A stretch of DNA of 64,000 bases, from sequence record PX915677.1; one strand, written 5' to 3'. The position numbers were made by a program, and so were the translations under genes. Source of the stretch: a phage. A model generated the notes under the pieces. It saw only the letters and a program-made list of their open reading frames with translations. It was not told the origin of the DNA and searched no databases. Positions 15,800 through 53,785 of this stretch are shown here, one piece after another (positions within the stretch are counted from its first letter, which is position 1; every line of letters starts with the position of its first letter).

Positions 15800-16312
15800 A
15801 TGGCAATGCCAGATTTCAGAGGGGCTTTTACATATAACCCAAATACAGGGCATCTTTTCTGGTCTATGAGTAACGTATTCAATAAACAGAAAGGGAAACG
15901 TGCTGGATGTATTAATAATAAAGGATATCGTGTATTAACCTTCAAGAAGAAATCATACCTAGAGCATAAGGTCATAGCTGAACTCTTTCTTCCTAAAGTA
16001 GAAGGGAAGGATTATGTCAACCATAAGAATGGAATAAAAGACGATAACAGGATTGAGAATCTAGAGTGGTGTACTCAACAAGAAAACTGTACACATGCTT
16101 TTGAAACAGGCCTCTCAACACCTAGGAGTCTTGAGGATAACCCTAATTCCAAACTCACTAAAGAGCAAGTTCTCTTTTGTTTGGAGAACTACAAACCGAG
16201 AGATAGAGAGTTTGGAGCTAGAGCCTTAGCTAGAAAGTTTGGGGTCTCTAAAAGCACAATATCTCTCATTACTAAAGGCGTAAACTGGAAGGAGGTTTAT
16301 TATGATGCCTGA
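15800..16312 (+). CDS. HNH homing endonuclease (170 aa)
   Basis: HNH motif region VNHKNGIKDDNRIENLEWCTQQENCTH; inserted between capsid and downstream virion genes. Confidence 0.7.
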   Translation: MAMPDFRGAFTYNPNTGHLFWSMSNVFNKQKGKRAGCINNKGYRVLTFKKKSYLEHKVIAELFLPKVEGKDYVNHKNGIKDDNRIENLEWCTQQENCTHAFETGLSTPRSLEDNPNSKLTKEQVLFCLENYKPRDREFGARALARKFGVSKSTISLITKGVNWKEVYYDA

Positions 16313-29095: not shown

Positions 29096-30148
29096 ATGTC
29101 TTTATTTGGAAAATCAGCTTCTAGCAAAACCACAGTGGCCCCTTCCTCTCAGGTTGATGCCCTGCTGAAGCAGATTGTTGCTAATGCTCAGAATATGCAG
29201 AACAACGATCCGGGATTCATCTCCCAACAACTGGCTGGGTTTAATGGCAACCAACAGGGTGCTCTGAACAACTTAGCAGCTTCTACTACTCAGAAGAAAC
29301 TAGCTGATATGTATACACCACGTACACAGCAAGGGTTGGACCAATTAAACTCTCTTGCACAGCAGTATCAGAATATTGTCAATGGTGGTGGTCTAACTGC
29401 TGATGGTGTTAATAACTTCAGTAAAGGACTAAACAGCTCAGCTCTTGCTCAAGCGACTAGTAAGGCAGCTTCCAATGTATCTCTCGGAAATGGTTCTGAT
29501 TCAGGTTCTCTCCGTAGAGCTGCTGCTCAAGGTGCTGCTCTGAACAGTGCTAATACAAACTTAGCTCGTACTATCAGTGGCAAGAATATGGGAATCAGTG
29601 CTCTTCAACAAGACCAAAACTTCCAGAGGGGGTTACTTGGTGCTCAGTCAGGATTGGCTGGACAGAATCTCAATCTTGGTGCTCAAGGTGTTCAGGCAAC
29701 TCAACAAGCTATCCAGAATCAACTCATGGCTGGTAATCTACAACAGCAACAAGCCCAAGCTCAAGCTGATATTAATTGGCAGAACGCTATTGGCTCTCAA
29801 CAGTATGGGTGGAATCAGCTTAACAACCAACTTAATGTATTAAATAGTGTAAGCCCAATGGCTGGGTACACGATTAAGAATGCTGCTCCGGGGGTTAATA
29901 CTGGACAACAGCTCCTAGGTGCTGGTATCACTGGATTAGGTATTGCAGGTCGTATGGGTGCTTTCTCTCCTAATCAACAGACTCAGAATGCTTGGAGTTC
30001 CTATAACAACTCAGGTGGGCAATCTGGAATGGCTGGTCCTATGATTGGTGGTTCTAATCTTTCTCAACAGAAAGGTCAGTCTAACTGGTTATCCACAGCA
30101 GGTAGTAATATCTTAGGTGGTGTCTTAGGGGCATTTGGAGCAAACTAA
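29096..30148 (+). CDS. Gln/Asn/Gly-rich low-complexity internal virion protein (350 aa)
   Basis: ORF track; Gly-rich hydrophobic C-terminus; paralogous to next gene. Confidence 0.55.
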   Translation: MSLFGKSASSKTTVAPSSQVDALLKQIVANAQNMQNNDPGFISQQLAGFNGNQQGALNNLAASTTQKKLADMYTPRTQQGLDQLNSLAQQYQNIVNGGGLTADGVNNFSKGLNSSALAQATSKAASNVSLGNGSDSGSLRRAAAQGAALNSANTNLARTISGKNMGISALQQDQNFQRGLLGAQSGLAGQNLNLGAQGVQATQQAIQNQLMAGNLQQQQAQAQADINWQNAIGSQQYGWNQLNNQLNVLNSVSPMAGYTIKNAAPGVNTGQQLLGAGITGLGIAGRMGAFSPNQQTQNAWSSYNNSGGQSGMAGPMIGGSNLSQQKGQSNWLSTAGSNILGGVLGAFGAN

Positions 30149-30160
30149 AGGAGATTTGAT

Positions 30161-31129
30161 ATGGGACTTTTCGGAGGCGGGGGTAGTAAAACTACTTCCC
30201 AAATGATTCGCCCTGAATACATTCAACAGTATATTGACCAGCTTAACCAACAGATTGGTAATACTAGTTCAGGGGATTATGTTTATCGTGACAGTGTAGG
30301 GTTTAATAACAATCAGACAGAGGCACTTAACAACCTAGCACAATCTGGCGCTCTAGGTACTCTCTCACAGCAGTATATGGATGCAGCAGGTCAAGGCTTG
30401 GGTTATCTAGATAATGCCTATAAAGGTTATCAGAGCCTCTCTGGACAAGGTGGGATTACTGGAGAGCAGATTGGTGCTCTCGCTGGTCAACTGTATGATG
30501 ATGACGCTGTGCAAGCAGCCATTACAGCTAATAATGAACAGGTTCAACAGAACTTGGCACGTAATGCTCTTCCTCAGTTGGCTCAACAGTTTGCCGGTCA
30601 ACAAGGTTCAGGTGCTCGTATGGCTAAGTCTTTTGCCCAAGGTGATGCTCTGAATCAGATGCAAGGGCAAGCAACAGATATTACCAATAGTGCATATAAC
30701 TCGGCTATCAGCCAAGCTGAAAGCATCCTCTCTGGTAATAGACAGAATCAGGCAGCTGCTCTCTCTGGTCTTTCTAATATTGGTTCTAACCTTTCTAACC
30801 TAGGTCAGCAGGGTGCTAATTTGTCTCAACAGCAAATAATGAATCAATGGAATGCAGGGTTGCAGCAACAACAGCAACAACAGAATGAATATGATAATGC
30901 CTACCAGAATGCTCAGAACGCAGCTAATTGGGGATGGCAAGATATCAATAACCAACTCGGTGCAGCAGGTGTACTTAACGGTGCTCTCGGACAAACTACA
31001 ACTACTAAAACATCTGGTGGCAAAGGTGGTTTCCTTGGTGGAGCTATGAGTGGTGCAGCAGCTGGCTCTTCCTTTGGACCTTGGGGTGCATTAGCTGGGG
31101 GTGTAATCGGTGGGTTGGCTAGTACTTAA
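30161..31129 (+). CDS. Gln/Asn/Gly-rich low-complexity internal virion protein, paralogue (322 aa)
   Basis: Shared N-terminal motif (FNxNQxxALNNLAxS) and glycine-zipper-like C-terminus with 29096..30148. Confidence 0.55.
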   Translation: MGLFGGGGSKTTSQMIRPEYIQQYIDQLNQQIGNTSSGDYVYRDSVGFNNNQTEALNNLAQSGALGTLSQQYMDAAGQGLGYLDNAYKGYQSLSGQGGITGEQIGALAGQLYDDDAVQAAITANNEQVQQNLARNALPQLAQQFAGQQGSGARMAKSFAQGDALNQMQGQATDITNSAYNSAISQAESILSGNRQNQAAALSGLSNIGSNLSNLGQQGANLSQQQIMNQWNAGLQQQQQQQNEYDNAYQNAQNAANWGWQDINNQLGAAGVLNGALGQTTTTKTSGGKGGFLGGAMSGAAAGSSFGPWGALAGGVIGGLAST

Positions 31130-42140: not shown

Positions 42141-42406
42141 TATTCTATTCCACGCTCTTTAAGAGCTTCTAACAATCCGTTGTGATTAGCAGCACATTCT
42201 GTGTACTGGTCCTGATACCACTCCAACGTAGTGGCTAGTGCTTTTCCTTGAGCACTCTCTAAAAGAGGTAGGTCAACCCTACATTCAGCTTTTAGGTTTG
42301 TTGGTAAGGGCATTGATTGCCTGCTGTTGTCGCTCGTTGAACAAGCTGATAAACTAAAAGCTAGCAAAATCCCCGTACAACTCAATAGCTTTTTCTTTAT
42401 ATGCAC
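42140..42406 (-). CDS. Lipoprotein (lipobox LSAC), candidate outer-membrane spanin subunit
   Basis: GTG start at 42406 with GGAAGGAG RBS; signal MHIKKKLLSCTGILLAFSLSAC; N-terminal coding overlaps 3-prime end of HNH gene. Confidence 0.5.
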
Positions 42407-42812
42407 ACCTAGCTCCTTCCAGTGTATCATGAAAACCAAGCCAAATAACCTTATCCTCGAATCCTATTCGAGCAGTCCATTTGTTAACATCCTTCCTATA
42501 CCCGACACCTTTTATGCCTGTTATAGAATTCTTCTGAGCAGATGTATTCATCTGATTCTGCGCATTGGTTGCTTTTCTTAGGTTAGTCCAAGAGTTGTTA
42601 GATTTAATCTGATCTTTGTGGTCAATATCAGTATCAGGGATTTCCCCTGTTTTTAAATACCAAGCCACTCTGTGCGCTTTATGCGCTTTTCCATTAAATC
42701 TAATAATAATGTATCCAGCATCTATCAAACAACCGGCTTCTTTTCCAGCAAACCTAGAGTTCCATTGATTGCTCTTCTTTTCAGAGCTTCTCCATGTTAG
42801 CTTTCCTGACAC
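42354..42812 (-). CDS. HNH homing endonuclease with AP2-type DNA-binding domain
   Basis: HNH region DIDHKDQIKSNNSWTNLRKATNAQN; AP2-like C-terminus (GVGYRKDVNKWTARIGF...LGFHDTLEGARCAY). Confidence 0.7.
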   Translation of the reverse strand: MSGKLTWRSSEKKSNQWNSRFAGKEAGCLIDAGYIIIRFNGKAHKAHRVAWYLKTGEIPDTDIDHKDQIKSNNSWTNLRKATNAQNQMNTSAQKNSITGIKGVGYRKDVNKWTARIGFEDKVIWLGFHDTLEGARCAYKEKAIELYGDFASF

Positions 42813-47357: not shown

Positions 47358-49202
47358 TTAGTGTGTATGCATCCAGTTAAGTCCAATCTGACAATCAGAT
47401 GCCAGAGGACATTCCATATTCAGATACTCGCCAGCTTTCTTAACACAAAGCTCGGTGTGCTCTTTGAGTTTCTGTACATCATTACGGTTTACTGAGAATT
47501 GACCTTCATCGTGCATATCAATTACCTTAGCACAACGAACCTTATCTTTCTCAATCCACTTGTTAAGGAACATCATAGCATATTTCATAACAACAGCACC
47601 AGCACATTGCAGGAGTGTGTTAAGGGCTTTATGAACCATAACCTTACCAGTGGCATCCCGTCTCATTGTAATCTTACGACCATCAACTCCAATCAAGTAT
47701 CCTTGAGCAGCTTTCTCTGTCATACGATCAATGAGGATTGCAATACATGGGTTCTCTGCTAAGAAACGTGCTCGCATCACTGAACCTTCGTCAGCCCCAC
47801 CACCTACAATTGAACCAAGCTTAGCATCACCAGCACCATAGTTGAATGCGTAGATAAACGTCTTAGCGTTGTCACGAGTAGGAAGACCAGCAAGTTTCTG
47901 GTTGTGGGAGTGGATATCACCTTCAAGGAGAATATCACGATACATAATAGCAGAAGCTAAACCACGTTCTGCCAGAGCTTTCTTAGCTGGGTTGTTCTCT
48001 TCAATTGCCTCAGCAAGCATATCCCTACACTCTTTAATGAGGTAGTGAGCGAGCATACGAAGTTCAAGTCCAGAACCATCATACCCTAAGAATACTTCTT
48101 TACCAGCGGGTATGTAATATTTGTAAGCACCTATAGGTTTATCTTTCTTCCCCGGCTTACCTTTCTCGTAAATTACGTTAGTACCTTTTCGTATATAACA
48201 ACCATCAGGAACAACGTTAGTAATAACGAAAGGACGAGAGTGATCACTGTCTGAGTTATAGTCAGACTCAAACAAACTGCGACACTCGTGACCAAACAGA
48301 CCACGGGAGGGAATATTAACCACGATACGATGTTTGAATCGAAAAGTCGGCGTAGCGCAGCTGTTAGCTTCTGCCGAAAGTTTACCATCTTCGCGTTCCT
48401 TTGCTATGAGTCCACTGATAAGACCTAGCCTGTGAGCCGCTACAACGCGTCTCTTAAGCAAACTTCCGACACTCCCTAGCTCACCCCCTAACCCTTCTTC
48501 AAGAGTCTCCTCGAGGTTTGTAGGAGCTGTAGGCCACTTGTTTGATGTGGCTAGTGCTTTCTTAATCTCATCAAACGTTACAGGATTACGGCGATTAGGG
48601 TTCAACCCCAAACCAAATACGTAAGCCTTCATGTAATTCTTAGTCTTAAACCTGAAATGCTTTTCTAAGAACTTCTTAATATCAGCGTCAACCATCTCGG
48701 CTGTCTGCTTCTGCTTAGCATTGCCTCGCATCCAAGCAGTATACCATGCTTGGTATGTTCCATACTTTCTCATATCTTTCTTAATTTCGAAAGTATTCCA
48801 AGGCTTCTTAGATACGTTAAACTCTGGAGGAAGGAAGCCCTCATCCATAAGAGCTTCTTTAACTCGTGCATCTTTAGATGGGTCAAAGTCTACATATTCG
48901 ACACAGGTGAAAGCTCCACCAATATCTTCTCTCTTCAGCCCAACCCTATCACAATAGGCTTGAGGCCACTTCTGTAAAGCTCCAGACTTCTTAAACGGCT
49001 TCATATAAGTAGAGCCATCTAATCTCATCTTAGGTAAGAGAGGAATCAACTCTCTGTCAATATTAACAATAATCTCTTTAAGGAGGTGAACATACCACCG
49101 AGCATTTCTTCGGTTGAAACTCACTCCGTGCTTTGCTTGCTTAGAGATTATATCAGCGACAGTCATCTCTGTCAAAAATGGAAGAGCGTCCGGGTTGCTC
49201 AC
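47358..49202 (-). CDS. DNA polymerase, family A, polymerase domain only (614 aa)
   Basis: Motif A region LGYDGSGLELRMLAHY, motif B RDNAKTFIYAFNYGAG, motif C VIDMHDEGQF; no exonuclease motifs in this ORF. Confidence 0.85.
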   Translation of the reverse strand: MSNPDALPFLTEMTVADIISKQAKHGVSFNRRNARWYVHLLKEIIVNIDRELIPLLPKMRLDGSTYMKPFKKSGALQKWPQAYCDRVGLKREDIGGAFTCVEYVDFDPSKDARVKEALMDEGFLPPEFNVSKKPWNTFEIKKDMRKYGTYQAWYTAWMRGNAKQKQTAEMVDADIKKFLEKHFRFKTKNYMKAYVFGLGLNPNRRNPVTFDEIKKALATSNKWPTAPTNLEETLEEGLGGELGSVGSLLKRRVVAAHRLGLISGLIAKEREDGKLSAEANSCATPTFRFKHRIVVNIPSRGLFGHECRSLFESDYNSDSDHSRPFVITNVVPDGCYIRKGTNVIYEKGKPGKKDKPIGAYKYYIPAGKEVFLGYDGSGLELRMLAHYLIKECRDMLAEAIEENNPAKKALAERGLASAIMYRDILLEGDIHSHNQKLAGLPTRDNAKTFIYAFNYGAGDAKLGSIVGGGADEGSVMRARFLAENPCIAILIDRMTEKAAQGYLIGVDGRKITMRRDATGKVMVHKALNTLLQCAGAVVMKYAMMFLNKWIEKDKVRCAKVIDMHDEGQFSVNRNDVQKLKEHTELCVKKAGEYLNMECPLASDCQIGLNWMHTH

Positions 49203-49218
49203 TTTATACTCCTTTAAA

Positions 49219-49641
49219 TTATTGGTAAAGTAAATCTGTAAATGCTTGATTATCTTCTACTACATTCAGCATAGTTGCTTCATCACTATAAGCCCTAACC
49301 GTCCCATTGACAACTGTCCAAGGAGGGGGCGGAGGGGGTGTATGTGTAGCTCTGGCTTCACGAGGTTGTTCTCGTACCAGATGAGCCACTACTCTCTGAT
49401 TAGCAACCTCTTCCCTTTCTCGAATAGCTCTTTGAATGTAAGCCAGCTTCATACCCCAAGCTTCTTCAAACTCCTGAGGGTGCTTATCACTGATAACCAC
49501 ATACTGACGTTCAGGAATACCAGAGCGAATCTCTGATAATAATTCATGAAACAAATCCAGTTCATGCTCAGTGAGATTCATTTCAATATCATCCCACTTT
49601 AGAACTAGGAAACGGTTTTGGTGTCTAGCTGGTAATGGCAT
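49219..49641 (-). CDS. Hypothetical protein with poly-Pro linker
   Basis: ORF track. Confidence 0.5.
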   Translation of the reverse strand: MPLPARHQNRFLVLKWDDIEMNLTEHELDLFHELLSEIRSGIPERQYVVISDKHPQEFEEAWGMKLAYIQRAIREREEVANQRVVAHLVREQPREARATHTPPPPPPWTVVNGTVRAYSDEATMLNVVEDNQAFTDLLYQ

Positions 49642-49644
49642 AAC

Positions 49645-49929
49645 TCAACCTCTTGGGAATGGCATCAAAAATTCCACAGCAGATTTAATTTCATTATTGA
49701 TTCTTGAATCACGATAAGAGATAAACTTACCTTTACTATCACGTAACATTACATGGGTTCTGGCTGTTTTGTGAGGGAGCAATGTGATACTAGTTGGAAT
49801 GGCATCAATCCCTACAGCGTATTTGTCAATAGTCTTACTTTCAGCCAACAGATAAGACCAAGTACGCGGTTTCTGCTCCGGGCGGTTAGGGTATGTGTCC
49901 CGAATCTGAACCATAGCTAATTTATTCAT
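49645..49929 (-). CDS. Small protein, paralogue pair member A
   Basis: Shares KTARTxVxLRxxxGKFISY...AVExLxPFP with 49931..50185. Confidence 0.55.
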   Translation of the reverse strand: MNKLAMVQIRDTYPNRPEQKPRTWSYLLAESKTIDKYAVGIDAIPTSITLLPHKTARTHVMLRDSKGKFISYRDSRINNEIKSAVEFLMPFPRG

Positions 49930-49930
49930 A

Positions 49931-50185
49931 TTAAACTCCTTTAGGGAATGGGATGAGATTTTCTACTGCAACACGGAAAGATTTTTCTACGTTCTTATTC
50001 TTATAAGAAATGAATTTACCATCAGCACCACGAAGGATTACATTAGTGCGAGCTGTTTTTGGGTTAATCCCAATCATCCGTTCGATGATCTTGTTTGATT
50101 TGTTGTGGTGGTTAGTGAAAGTCCACTTAACAATCTTGCCATCTCTGGTTACATCAAAAATATTTACGATTTTTACAATAGACAT
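49931..50185 (-). CDS. Small protein, paralogue pair member B
   Basis: See 49645..49929. Confidence 0.55.
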   Translation of the reverse strand: MSIVKIVNIFDVTRDGKIVKWTFTNHHNKSNKIIERMIGINPKTARTNVILRGADGKFISYKNKNVEKSFRVAVENLIPFPKGV

Positions 50186-50220
50186 ATTTATTACCTAAGA
50201 AGTTTATTTTGGTTTATATA

Positions 50221-50248
50221 AAAGAAAAGGCCACCCATTTGGGTAGCC
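50221..50248 (-). terminator. Intrinsic terminator (minus strand)
   Basis: GGCTACCC(aaat)GGGTGGCC with one G-U pair, then TTTTCTTT on minus strand. Confidence 0.5.
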
Positions 50249-50253
50249 TCATA

Positions 50254-50571
50254 TTACGATGAGCTTAAAGCTCCTTTGCGTGCTCCAGCTGCTTTTCCAG
50301 CTCGATCACCACTTTTGCCGCCGTTTGAACGGTTTGAGCTGACTGATTCAACACGTAAGTTGCTTGACGCATTAGAGCCTCCAGACTTGACAGCTCGTTT
50401 GTGTCCAACGTCTTTACCTCTGACAGCAGCTTTTCCATCGCGCTTTTCAACGATGCGACGTGCACGGTGGCGCTGAGCATCTCCGCTCTTGCTCCCAACG
50501 CCTGTTTCACCACGGGCAATTGCGGTACGTCTTTCTTGTGCATAATCTCTCTTTCCTACATGATCTGCCAT
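50254..50571 (-). CDS. Highly basic Gly/Ser/Arg/Lys-rich low-complexity protein (105 aa)
   Basis: AAGGAG RBS 7 nt upstream; own promoter motif and terminator; resembles KGG-repeat stress proteins (weak, by eye). Confidence 0.6.
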   Translation of the reverse strand: MADHVGKRDYAQERRTAIARGETGVGSKSGDAQRHRARRIVEKRDGKAAVRGKDVGHKRAVKSGGSNASSNLRVESVSSNRSNGGKSGDRAGKAAGARKGALSSS

Positions 50572-50607
50572 TTAAAACTCCTTAATATATCAGTGTACAC
50601 TAAGGAG

Positions 50608-50616
50608 TATACATTA
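50608..50616 (-). promoter_or_regulatory. TAATGTATA promoter motif, minus orientation
   Basis: Plus strand tatacatta; 37 nt upstream of start at 50571. Confidence 0.45.
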
Positions 50617-50627
50617 TAAGTTACTGT

Positions 50628-51365
50628 TTAAGCTTTCTTTTCCATTGCTTTAACAATCGCCTTACAGAAACCAGAACGAACAATATCATCTGATTCACCA
50701 TCTACAATCTCAGCAAACTCATACAGATCGTGTTCATCAATAAAGTTAGTAGCCCAAGTTAGACCACTCTCGCGACCACGCATATCATGCTGGTTTGTAT
50801 CACCCATACAGAACAATTGAGAGGTTTCTCCCAATCGAGTCATGATGGAGAAGGCTTCATCCTTAGTTGTGTTCTGGAACTCATCAACAATAACAATAGC
50901 ATCATTGAAAGAACGACCACGGAGATATTCCAGAGGTACAAACTCAATGTTACCATTTCCGATTTGGCATTCATAGAATCCCTTACCATATCGCTGAGTA
51001 ATAACATCAATGATAGGCATCAGGTAAGGCTCAAACTTCTCACGCATTCCTCCCGGAAGTAACCCAAGAGAGTTTCCCATGCCAACCGAAGGGCGACTCA
51101 GAATGATCTTCTGAATCTTACCACTCTTCAGTGCATCGATAACCGTGGAAGTGATTACAAAGGTCTTACCACAGCCCGCAGGAGCGTCTGTGAACACAAC
51201 TTGTTTAGTCTTAATAGCATTGAGTAGCTCAGACTGAAACTGGTTCTGAGGGACTACAGGCTTTGCTAAAACCACCTCTTCATACTCTCGCTTACCTTTA
51301 CGAGTAACAAGTGCTTCCCGACGAAGGTCTTTCCGTGATTCTTTCCGTGATTGACGACGACTCAT
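50628..51365 (-). CDS. phoH: PhoH-like ATPase
   Basis: Walker A APAGCGKTF, Walker B IVIVDEFQN, size and pattern typical of phage PhoH. Confidence 0.7.
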   Translation of the reverse strand: MSRRQSRKESRKDLRREALVTRKGKREYEEVVLAKPVVPQNQFQSELLNAIKTKQVVFTDAPAGCGKTFVITSTVIDALKSGKIQKIILSRPSVGMGNSLGLLPGGMREKFEPYLMPIIDVITQRYGKGFYECQIGNGNIEFVPLEYLRGRSFNDAIVIVDEFQNTTKDEAFSIMTRLGETSQLFCMGDTNQHDMRGRESGLTWATNFIDEHDLYEFAEIVDGESDDIVRSGFCKAIVKAMEKKA

Positions 51366-52656: not shown

Positions 52657-53313
52657 TTAACTCTCCACAGTTTTCTTCAGAGCTGCCCATGAGATTGGGT
52701 AGAGTTTAGCCATCTCTTCATCCAGAGATTTAGCAAACACTCGAACTTCATATTGAGCGTGAGATGAGAGTCGCTGACGACACAACTCAAACCAGCCATA
52801 CAAAGAACCAGTCCACACCCACTCAGTGATCATCCCCTGAGGAAGAACAAATCGAGCTTGCTCTGGTGCAATAAATTCAATCAACTTGTCATATGCTGCT
52901 AGAGAAGCTTCATATGCATCGTTAATCAGCATTAATGCTTCAGCTCGCTCTCCGTTGATGAGTTGAATCCCTGAACCTGCATGGAGGTCCGAAGGTCTCG
53001 CAAAAATCTCTTTAGGGATGAAGACTTCAACTGCTCCATCTTTATACCGCCGGGACATTTCGTTCCACGAGAATCCAACCTGATGCTTCTGTAGTTGACG
53101 AGCGATTGCAATTGGAGCCTTACAACGAAAGGACACTTGTGGGTGACGGAACGGAGTGCAGTGTTTCTCTCTAGCCAAGAAGTTAATCAGCCTAGTATCA
53201 CGATCATTCAAATCACCCTCTCGTACAACACCAAAAGAAACTCTTGCAGCATTAACAACAGTTTTATCACTGCCCATAGCTTCAATCAATGTTGCTTGCA
53301 ATTGTTCATTCAT
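52657..53313 (-). CDS. thyX: ThyX-like (flavin-dependent thymidylate synthase family) protein with altered signature motif
   Basis: VNAARVSFG, TPFRHPQVSF, KAPIAIARQL, SHAQYEV blocks align with ThyX; signature position reads KHQ-x8-S where ThyX has RHR-x7-S. Confidence 0.65.
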   Translation of the reverse strand: MNEQLQATLIEAMGSDKTVVNAARVSFGVVREGDLNDRDTRLINFLAREKHCTPFRHPQVSFRCKAPIAIARQLQKHQVGFSWNEMSRRYKDGAVEVFIPKEIFARPSDLHAGSGIQLINGERAEALMLINDAYEASLAAYDKLIEFIAPEQARFVLPQGMITEWVWTGSLYGWFELCRQRLSSHAQYEVRVFAKSLDEEMAKLYPISWAALKKTVES

Positions 53314-53785
53314 ACTTCAACTTCTCCTTGTTATAAGCAATCTCTGCTTCCTCTGGAGTATGGAAAGTTCCTAAATGCTTAGTCTTTCCGTTAACTCCGA
53401 TTATAGCTCTGAATTTTGTACCACTAGCCGTCTCTCTGATGTAAACACCCATTGGAAGTTTTCCAGCTTTTCCGGCTCTATTGTATTGTTTTCTGTTATG
53501 ACAGTTTGTAGATGGGTCAACATCTCTTAGGTTTTTAAGAGAGTCATCCAGTTTAATCTGGTTGATGTGATCAATCTCAAACTCAGGCATCTTTCCATAA
53601 GAGAAAAACCAAGCTAATCGACATGCTCTGTAAGATTTCCCTTCATAATAGATGTACCTGTAACCTAATGTTGAGACACACCCAGCAATGTTCCCTGATA
53701 CTCTCCTACCTTTGGTATTCTTCCACCTAAAGATTCCAGTATCAGGGTCATATGCTAAGTCTTCTTTTATCTTATCAGTTAACAC
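53306..53785 (-). CDS. HNH homing endonuclease with AP2-type domain
   Basis: FEIDHINQIKLDDSLKNLRDVDPSTNCHN plus AP2-like C-terminus. Confidence 0.7.
   Translation of the reverse strand: MLTDKIKEDLAYDPDTGIFRWKNTKGRRVSGNIAGCVSTLGYRYIYYEGKSYRACRLAWFFSYGKMPEFEIDHINQIKLDDSLKNLRDVDPSTNCHNRKQYNRAGKAGKLPMGVYIRETASGTKFRAIIGVNGKTKHLGTFHTPEEAEIAYNKEKLKYE

Follow-up and report, generated by a model that had tools for sequence, protein, structure and literature searches.

The stretch of DNA analyzed here (the window, 64,000 nucleotides of sequence record PX915677.1) comes from a Kuravirus (phiEco32-like, Gordonclarkvirinae) coliphage and carries two small genes for basic proteins in tandem, designated A and B, whose open reading frames were reported in an earlier note and are borne out at the positions given there, on the minus strand. 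The features at and around the pair are listed below in order of position.

47358..49202, minus strand: family A DNA polymerase without exonuclease domains (Pfam DNA_pol_A, E=2.5e-23; phiEco32 annotation)
49219..49641, minus strand: gp54-like gene, 140 aa, acidic, pI 5.2, charge -7.9 (phrog_11427, E=2.5e-83)
49645..49929, minus strand: copy B, 94 aa, pI 9.99, net charge +6.7 (open reading frame, phrog_6814, identity to gp56)
49648..49770, minus strand: constant C-terminal module of B, residues 54-94 (family alignments, dN/dS)
49927..49941, minus strand: A/B junction (read directly from the sequence)
49931..50185, minus strand: copy A, 84 aa, pI 10.45, net charge +9.7 (open reading frame, phrog_6814, synteny with phiEco32)
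49934..50059, minus strand: constant C-terminal module of A, residues 43-84, KTARTNVILRGADGKFISYKNKNVEKSFRVAVENLIPFPKGV (near-invariant alignment columns)
50060..50185, minus strand: variable N-terminal half of A, residues 1-42 (divergence, dN/dS, sequence types)
50250..50217, minus strand: intrinsic terminator between the gp58-like gene and A (ten-pair stem and its folding energy)
50254..50571, minus strand: gp58-like gene, 105 aa, pI 11.5, with an HNH-like motif (phrog_4590, E=7.7e-41)
50616..50608, minus strand: middle/late promoter element of the phage sigma factor (gp36), exact match TAATGTATA, upstream of the gp58-like gene

The pair had been placed between the DNA polymerase region and a terminator. 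Both do flank it, but on the coding strand the terminator precedes the pair (5') and does not follow it, and the polymerase gene, which is indeed downstream (47358..49202), is not directly adjacent, as the gene at 49219..49641 intervenes. The terminator consists of a ten-pair stem with six G-C pairs followed by TTTTCTTTT (-17.9 kcal/mol, z=-3.65), and the annotation of phage SU7 has a terminator at the equivalent place. No separate gp36-type promoter was found between the terminator (50250..50217) and A, and A and B are therefore presumably expressed by read-through of this upstream terminator. A consensus for gp36 promoters and a mapped promoter upstream of gene 58 of phiEco32 have been published (PMC8948821), and CDS25-68 of phage SU10, a range that covers the counterparts of A and B, constitute a middle class of genes (PMC4281155).

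At the A/B junction, the stop codon of A (TAA, 49933..49931) is followed by one spacer base (49930) and the ATG of B (49929..49927), and AAGGAG (49941..49936), the ribosome-binding site of B, lies within the Lys-Gly-Val codons of A. The same spacing of stop, 1 nt and ATG is found in phiEco32, in SU7, and in a divergent metagenomic lineage (L016/L017). The junction of B with the gp54-like gene is built alike: the gp54-like gene starts 3 nt past the stop codon of B, and its AGAGG lies within the last codons of B. Thus, the junctions point to translational coupling, and the SU10 gene class together with the exact gp36 element upstream of the gp58-like gene points to middle-gene status; taken together, this arrangement shows A and B to be apparent co-transcribed, translationally coupled middle genes of Kuravirus, with the read-through step being the inferred part.

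Over the 2.5 kb around A and B, the phage is 96-97% identical to Ec3-ASingh, LorandFenyves_Bas91 and vB_EcoP_DE5. A is the ortholog of phiEco32 gp57 (phi32_57, YP_001671802) and of Bas91_0050, and B is the ortholog of phiEco32 gp56 (phi32_56, YP_001671801) and of Bas91_0049, all annotated as hypothetical proteins. The phiEco32 genome has gp57 and gp56 in the same order, again one base apart, and flanked likewise by gp58, gp54 and the polymerase gene. It differs in a further small gene, gp55, which separates gp56 from gp54 and is absent from the phage analyzed here, and in the N-terminal half of its gp57, which is another allele than that of A. The proteins A, B and gp54 are 67%, 92.6% and 84% identical to their phiEco32 counterparts, versus 99.6-100% for the flanking PhoH, gp58 and polymerase proteins. 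Hypothetical proteins 96-99% identical to A and B are on deposit from about 100 Kuravirus-like genomes. In a search of the literature other than the primary phiEco32 papers (PMC2587145, PMC3275717), gp56, gp57 and phrog_6814 were not mentioned and no published function was found for them; a paper on prophage sRNA turned out to have no bearing on A and B. Because the two proteins are orthologs of cataloged hypothetical proteins with near-identical deposits, and because their grouping in one PHROG already implies paralogy, the finding of the pair is an already known and ordinary one.

The pair had been proposed to be tandem paralogs sharing KTARTxVxLRxxxGKFISY...AVExLxPFP over their C-terminal halves. 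The motif is present as quoted (KTARTNVILRGADGKFISY...AVENLIPFP in A, KTARTHVMLRDSKGKFISY...AVEFLMPFP in B), and the formal alignment suggested as a check found the similarity of A and B to be significant by every measure: BLASTP (30/93 identities, 32% over the whole length, E=9e-16), Smith-Waterman comparison (score 119; 2000 shuffles with a mean of 24.2, a standard deviation of 4.4 and a maximum of 45; z=21.6), and hhalign profile-profile comparison of A-type with B-type alignments (probability 99.3%, E=1.1e-20). Both proteins also match the same PHROG of unknown function, phrog_6814, from end to end (residues 1-84 of A on positions 1-86 of the 86-position profile, E=2.9e-36; residues 1-94 of B on positions 1-85 of 86, E=1.3e-36). 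The restriction of the similarity to the C-terminal halves holds as well, the signal coming almost entirely from the C-terminal 41 or so residues. The N-terminal halves show no significant pairwise similarity to each other (z=0.8; 21% of shuffles score equally well) and a weak one at the profile level (E=0.0013, probability 19%).

A family signature, T-A-R-T-[NH]-[VI]-x-[LIF]-[RK]-x(3)-G-[KR]-[FL]-x-S-[YF], followed by a helix (AVxxL) and by P-F-P near the C-terminus, is present in both A and B, and its columns are invariant or nearly so in both family alignments. Homologs are found in 99 deposited phage genomes, the hosts of which are all Escherichia or Shigella, and also in contigs of about 77 kb from metagenomes. 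When 1.84 billion cluster representatives were searched with the family profile, approximately 27 small relatives (79-103 aa) and two large proteins were recovered, with no domain fusions that hint at function. A large repeat protein with 'ARGxDGKLIH' units and a kinesin with 'GKEFISYRDSKL' were not accepted as relatives; both are regarded as coincidental matches to the short hairpin motif. Two motif patterns confirmed no relative in bacterial and archaeal genomes (one genome for each of 185,579 species), and the family thus has no prophage or defense-island context there.

Comparative genomics indicates that the family member occupies a fixed place in a block of four genes, encoding an HNH-like basic gp58, the family member itself, an acidic gp54-like protein, and the exonuclease-less family A polymerase. 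The block holds in this phage and in phiEco32 and, counted over the divergent members whose genomic context was retrieved, in eight independent divergent lineages (L008/L009, L010 and L011, which are viral contigs of 82-90 kb; L014; L018; L020; L021; and EP335). The gp54-like gene is located directly downstream of a gp56/gp57 family member in every lineage examined. The HNH assignment of gp58 is accompanied by a sub-threshold match of a distant gp58-like ortholog to the Pfam HNH family (E=0.003), and the SU10 version of gp58 (CDS56) has been seen by mass spectrometry.

Copy number within this block varies. The distribution in related genomes, another check that had been proposed, shows the tandem pair in most Kuravirus genomes, in Suseptimavirus SU7, and in the divergent metagenomic lineage L016/L017, the downstream copy of which is clearly B-like, and a single copy in distant relatives. 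Single-copy genomes comprise the divergent lineages L008/L009, L010, L011, L014, L018, L020 and L021 and, within Gordonclarkvirinae, LAMP and Nieuwekanaalvirus EP335; Bas89 and Bas93 gave one tblastn match each. The environmental single-copy members (L010:5845-6132, L011:5842-6132, L014:2843-3154, L018:6001-6264, L020 and L021) resemble A and B in their C-terminal motif, their length (87-103 aa) and their slot in the genome, but differ from the arrangement here in having one copy instead of two and, in some cases, extra small acidic or DprA/SLOG-like genes interspersed. The single gene of LAMP is of A type up to CCATTCCCTAAAGG and continues with the stop codon and downstream sequence of B, a junction that would fit recombination across the repeated 3' PFP(K/R)G codons having deleted B.

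Beyond these lineages the family fades. The 7-11-like phages, whose polymerase is 47% identical, have only a motif-level match of 23 residues in a small open reading frame near the polymerase, and nothing of the family was found beside the LUZ24-like polymerase. The 7-11-like case is illustrated by Salmonella phage SeKF_80 (Moazamivirus), in which the hypothetical protein CDS0075 (89 aa) is encoded two genes upstream of the family A polymerase, a comparable position, and has a C-terminus, ELFRTNVSVRDTKTGRFVKW, that resembles the core hairpin motif (ARTNVmLRDskGkFiSY). The alignment with A and B covers 23 residues (12.5 bits, E=0.0018 over the open reading frames scanned), with homology unproven, and CDS0075 differs from A and B in its pI of 7.9 and in having neither the C-terminal helix nor the PFP motif.

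Differences in selection were identified between the two genes and between their halves by pairwise comparison of this phage with six relatives. B is under purifying selection in both halves (dN/dS 0.06-0.18 within Kuravirus), and the C-terminal modules of both proteins are similarly constrained (0.04-0.14 in A, 0.02-0.17 in B). For the N-terminal half of A, dN/dS is raised (0.26-0.75) yet below 1; the sole value above 1 (1.18) comes from the saturated comparison with SU7. Since pairwise dN/dS never clearly exceeds 1, positive selection on A or B is not claimed, and relaxed constraint after duplication suffices to account for the N-terminal half of A. The mean pairwise identity of A-type sequences is 0.46 in the N-terminal half and 0.82 in the C-terminal half, and that of B-type sequences is 0.81 and 0.88, respectively. 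On its near-constant C-terminal half, A carries at least seven types of N-terminal sequence (at 60% identity). The SU10 counterpart of A (CDS54) has been noted as the least conserved of the shared middle genes, at 66% identity to phiEco32 (PMC4281155).

The divergence extends beyond A at the nucleotide level. Sliding identity has two sharp troughs, one in the N-terminal half of A (60-68% in 60-nt bins, versus 92-100% in the flanks) and the other in the C-terminal part of gp54 (37-55%). Compared with phiEco32, dS is approximately 0.63-0.65 in A, B and gp54 but 0.04-0.09 in gp58 and the polymerase gene; thus, the island from the terminator to the polymerase has a different and deeper history than its flanks. 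That A and B are real genes and paralogs with the evolutionary history described here is, in our judgment, close to certain.

An AlphaFold2 model of A built with the family alignment (pLDDT 88, pTM 0.77) contains predicted strands at residues 6-12, 18-24 and 49-52 with a short one near residue 58, and helices at residues 30-38 and 68-75. The predicted architecture, beta-beta-alpha-beta-beta-alpha, is a generic two-layer alpha/beta sandwich, and circular permutation would relate it to beta-alpha-beta-beta-alpha-beta, a reading inferred from the model. With its four-stranded antiparallel sheet and two helices, the model is like those of ferredoxin-like or two-layer sandwich proteins (de novo designed folds, PII/ACT-like domains, and the phage inhibitors p56 and Dmd). 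The top Foldseek match of the model in the PDB had E=0.2, and BFVD returned family members only. An internal duplication of two beta-beta-alpha halves was rejected (hhalign probability 0.8%).

Searches by sequence were similarly uninformative. Neither A nor B has a match in Pfam or NCBIfam at E up to 1, and the family profile found only motif-level noise in the PDB (a beta-trefoil-like 'LRGxNGxFIS' repeat and SpoIID). Several more specific identities were considered and set aside. An AbrB/MazE swapped-hairpin domain, suggested by the beta-beta-alpha-beta-beta order, was rejected, no adequate SpoVT/AbrB-type match being found. An OB-fold single-stranded DNA-binding protein was rejected on the grounds that the model of A is a sheet-plus-helices sandwich and that there are no SSB or OB matches in Pfam, PHROG or the PDB. 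The beta-clamp-binding consensus is QL[SD]LF, and the idea that the C-terminal LxPFP is a beta-clamp-binding motif was dropped as it does not fit.

Two database labels were examined in the same way. The label 'autotransporter adhesin' given to A in several GenBank records, among them DE5, CHD5UKE1 and EC.W2-6, looks like an annotation artefact, as A is an 84-aa basic alpha/beta protein with no Pfam or NCBIfam match. The label 'Cas8 protein' that the Ptacy1532 and Ptacy1479 records carry over this region has as its sole counterpart a match of B alone to PADLOC typeIV_Cas8 (E=0.033, 12.1 bits); a large subunit of a type IV CRISPR complex was rejected, B being just 94 aa long with no cas genes nearby. 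The acidic neighbor is no more revealing, as the gp54-like protein has shallow homologs, a poor AlphaFold model (pLDDT 51, pTM 0.32) and no match in the PDB by sequence. In SU10, the counterparts of A and B are absent from the 34 proteins detected by mass spectrometry, whereas the products of the neighboring CDS51, 55, 56 and 57 were detected; this absence is weak evidence, because small basic proteins yield few tryptic peptides.

The reading we favor, with low confidence and a probability of roughly 0.35, is that A and B may work as a dimer and bind nucleic acid or the replisome. The basic charge, the invariant hairpin, the coupling to an acidic neighbor and the strict retention in the polymerase block all point this way, and a gene kept at one position while the polymerase diverges to 72% identity suggests a function tied to the replication block. 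The history of the genes is much firmer than this function: A and B go back to an old tandem duplication of a gene that the more distant phiEco32-like phages have as a single copy, and that gene is a fixed member of the four-gene block of the replication module. Since the duplication B has remained constrained, the N-terminal half of A has drifted, apparently under relaxed constraint, into its seven or more types, and some lineages have lost B again. Each gene encodes a basic alpha/beta protein (about 10 kDa) with a near-invariant C-terminal module (TARTNVxLRxxxGKFxSY...AVxxLxPFP) and a freer N-terminal half. On the favored reading, the conserved hairpin module, rich in Arg, Lys, Thr, Ser and Tyr, may bind nucleic acid or an acidic partner in the replisome, for which the gp54-like protein, acidic and co-translated, is the most evident candidate. 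Single-copy phages would have a homodimer of the protein and this phage a heterodimer of A and B, and the dimer would serve as an accessory factor for the unusual exonuclease-less DNA polymerase.

Three observations argue against a replisome factor, and the absence of both proteins from the SU10 detections counts weakly in the same direction. A core cofactor of the polymerase would be expected to travel further with it, and the family is lineage-specific; the natural loss of B indicates that one copy is dispensable; and the far greater divergence of A, B and gp54 than of their flanks is a pattern more typical of accessory or host-interaction loci. This last pattern bears on another possible and rather more doubtful reading, in which A and B are host-takeover or anti-defense proteins: the constant C-terminal module would act as scaffold or effector, a specificity surface in the variable N-terminal half of A would follow a polymorphic host protein or immune sensor, and with a second copy two targets could be covered. 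The sharp divergence hotspot in the N-terminal half of A, with its many types and raised dN/dS, is what such a protein might have, and the elevated dS of A, B and gp54 points to allele exchange or old polymorphism. The gene content of the island is also plastic: phiEco32 has a gp55 that is missing here, and LAMP and EP335 have lost B. Furthermore, the Gordonclarkvirinae are described in the BASEL study as remarkably resistant to restriction-modification, although neither a known restriction inhibitor nor a pathway for covalent modification of the genome was identified in them (PMC11990801), so that there is an unexplained resistance for such a protein to account for. However, relaxed constraint explains the variability equally well, since dN/dS is never clearly above 1 within Kuravirus, and for anti-defense cargo it is unusual to keep one place in the replication block throughout, as the gene does in every lineage, single-copy ones included. 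The strongly basic charge speaks against a DNA-mimic inhibitor, the defense profiles gave no match beyond one at chance level, and the structural similarities are not significant.

The loss of B raises the question of whether the two copies divide any labor at all. It is unlikely that they are recent, redundant duplicates of which B is a spare copy heading for loss: the existence of single-copy Gordonclarkvirinae in nature (LAMP and EP335, with single matches in Bas89 and Bas93) and the easy route to deletion offered by the repeated 3' ends agree with redundancy, but the duplication is old, as A and B are only 32% identical and A-like/B-like pairs also exist in Suseptimavirus and the divergent L016/L017 lineage. 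B is moreover under strong purifying selection in both halves, and the distinct, lineage-stable N-terminal halves indicate long-term retention of both copies.

Less plausible still is a role for A and B as small sequence-specific DNA-binding regulators of middle-to-late transcription or of origin use, with the paralogs reading related operators. Small basic proteins whose genes belong to a middle-gene cluster and follow a phage-sigma promoter and a terminator could be such regulators, but no helix-turn-helix, ribbon-helix-helix or AbrB-like signature was found by sequence or fold (Pfam, NCBIfam, PDB), and gp36 and gp79 already account for the temporal control of phiEco32 (PMC8948821). Finally, the notion that A and B are chance or wrong-strand open reading frames and not genes, for which one could cite the short plus-strand frames that overlap them (49753..49920 and 50010..50198) and their absence from the SU10 mass-spectrometry detections, is effectively refuted by the purifying selection in the minus-strand frame, by homologs across about 100 phage genomes and metagenomes, by the confident structure prediction, and by the absence of any Rfam RNA family from 49000..50800.

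Two more specific roles can be sketched, each of them a long shot. Together with the gp54-like protein, the family might constitute a small accessory subunit of a new kind, orphan at the level of fold, for the exonuclease-less, split family A polymerase of phiEco32-like phages; or it might be a counter-defense factor resident in the replication module, with a swappable N-terminal half that sets specificity.

The practical weight of the finding is small, because near-identical hypothetical proteins have already been deposited and clustered in one PHROG. What the present description adds is a fixed four-gene block beside an exonuclease-less polymerase, in which a small protein whose C-terminal module is constant and whose N-terminal half is free has undergone one duplication and later losses. 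In addition, 'autotransporter adhesin' and 'Cas8 protein' are misleading as database labels and can be dropped. If a role in replication or counter-defense were true, it would fill one gap among many in a group of phages that is therapeutically used and poorly studied, and if the role were in counter-defense, it could help to explain the resistance of Gordonclarkvirinae to restriction.

The gp58-like gene, which precedes the gp56/gp57 family members in the four-gene block, has its own transcription signals, and the sequence of the window places the following features around and downstream of it:

50616..50608, minus strand: phage-sigma promoter element of the gp58-like gene
50254..50571, minus strand: gp58-like gene (105 aa, pI 11.5, HNH-like motif)
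50265..50543, minus strand: alternative-frame ORF within the gp58-like gene (92 aa)
50250..50217, minus strand: terminator of the gp58-like gene
49219..49641, minus strand: gp54-like gene, acidic product
47358..49202, minus strand: DNA polymerase (Pol), uninterrupted

The possession of both a phage-sigma promoter element and a terminator suggests that the gp58-like gene is expressed separately and at high level as a short transcript; the gp58-like protein of the related phage SU10 (CDS56) has been seen by mass spectrometry. In distant orthologues the HNH-like motif reads DVDHIKPVKSGGSNESSNLRVRSIEANRSDGG, and their match to Pfam HNH (E = 0.003, 18.2 bits) is below the cut-off of 21.4 bits. The alternative-frame ORF is probably not a gene, having only weak, sub-threshold Pfam matches and no match in a PHROG search, although distant relatives also have equivalent ORFs overlapping the gp58-like gene.

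Directly 3' of the family member there is always a gp54-like gene, which encodes a conserved N-terminal domain of approximately 75 aa, to which the protein is reduced in certain distant relatives (L009 and L011, two of the compared stretches of related DNA, each encode a protein of 78 aa), and a proline-rich, hypervariable C-terminal region, in which nucleotide identity falls to 37-55% between near-identical flanks. The AlphaFold model of the gp54-like protein is poor (pLDDT 51). Distant phiEco32-like phages possess an additional gene of approximately 180 aa, absent from the window, between the family member (or the gp54-like gene) and Pol (L010:6474-7022, L011:6368-6904, L009:311-907 and L015:1979-2137); its sequence (YTGIGSRETP...LRSGGAxGADxAFE) weakly matches the DprA and SLOG families (E = 0.004). 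The Pol of several relatives (L004, L006, L007, L012) is found by tblastn as two pieces, split after residue 454 or residue 564 by insertions of approximately 300-800 bp; that of phage LAMP is annotated as a joined CDS, and in phage SU7 a homing endonuclease adjoins Pol.

Other mutually similar genes or ORFs are present in the window:

29096..30148 and 30161..31129, plus strand: tandem paralogue pair, with products of 350 aa and 322 aa, in the late (structural) cluster
15800..16312 (plus strand), 42354..42812 (minus strand) and 53306..53785 (minus strand): three mutually similar ORFs (30-34% identity)

The late pair (31% identity across 275 residues, E = 1e-10) is probably the "first" tandem pair implied by the earlier note. 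The three similar ORFs (E = 1e-7 to 3e-18) are probably dispersed homing endonucleases, because the minus-strand cluster of phage Bas91 contains genes annotated as HNH endonucleases that resemble them in size and in approximate position.

Several GenBank records of relatives label copy A (49931..50185, minus strand) "autotransporter adhesin", and in the Ptacy phages the region of copies A and B is labelled "Cas8 protein" (records with one or other label include MW741821, MZ234028, PP445229, PQ863255 and PQ863256); neither label was supported by any profile search run.

Beyond the phiEco32-like phages, the 7-11-like Salmonella phage SeKF_80 encodes an 89-aa hypothetical protein (CDS0075, L022:3404-3673) two genes upstream of a 7-11-type Pol A. 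Its C-terminal end, ELFRTNVSVRDTKTGRFVKW, matches the core hairpin motif of the gp56/gp57 family (ARTNVmLRDskGkFiSY) with 12.5 bits. CDS0075 may be a remote, truncated relative.
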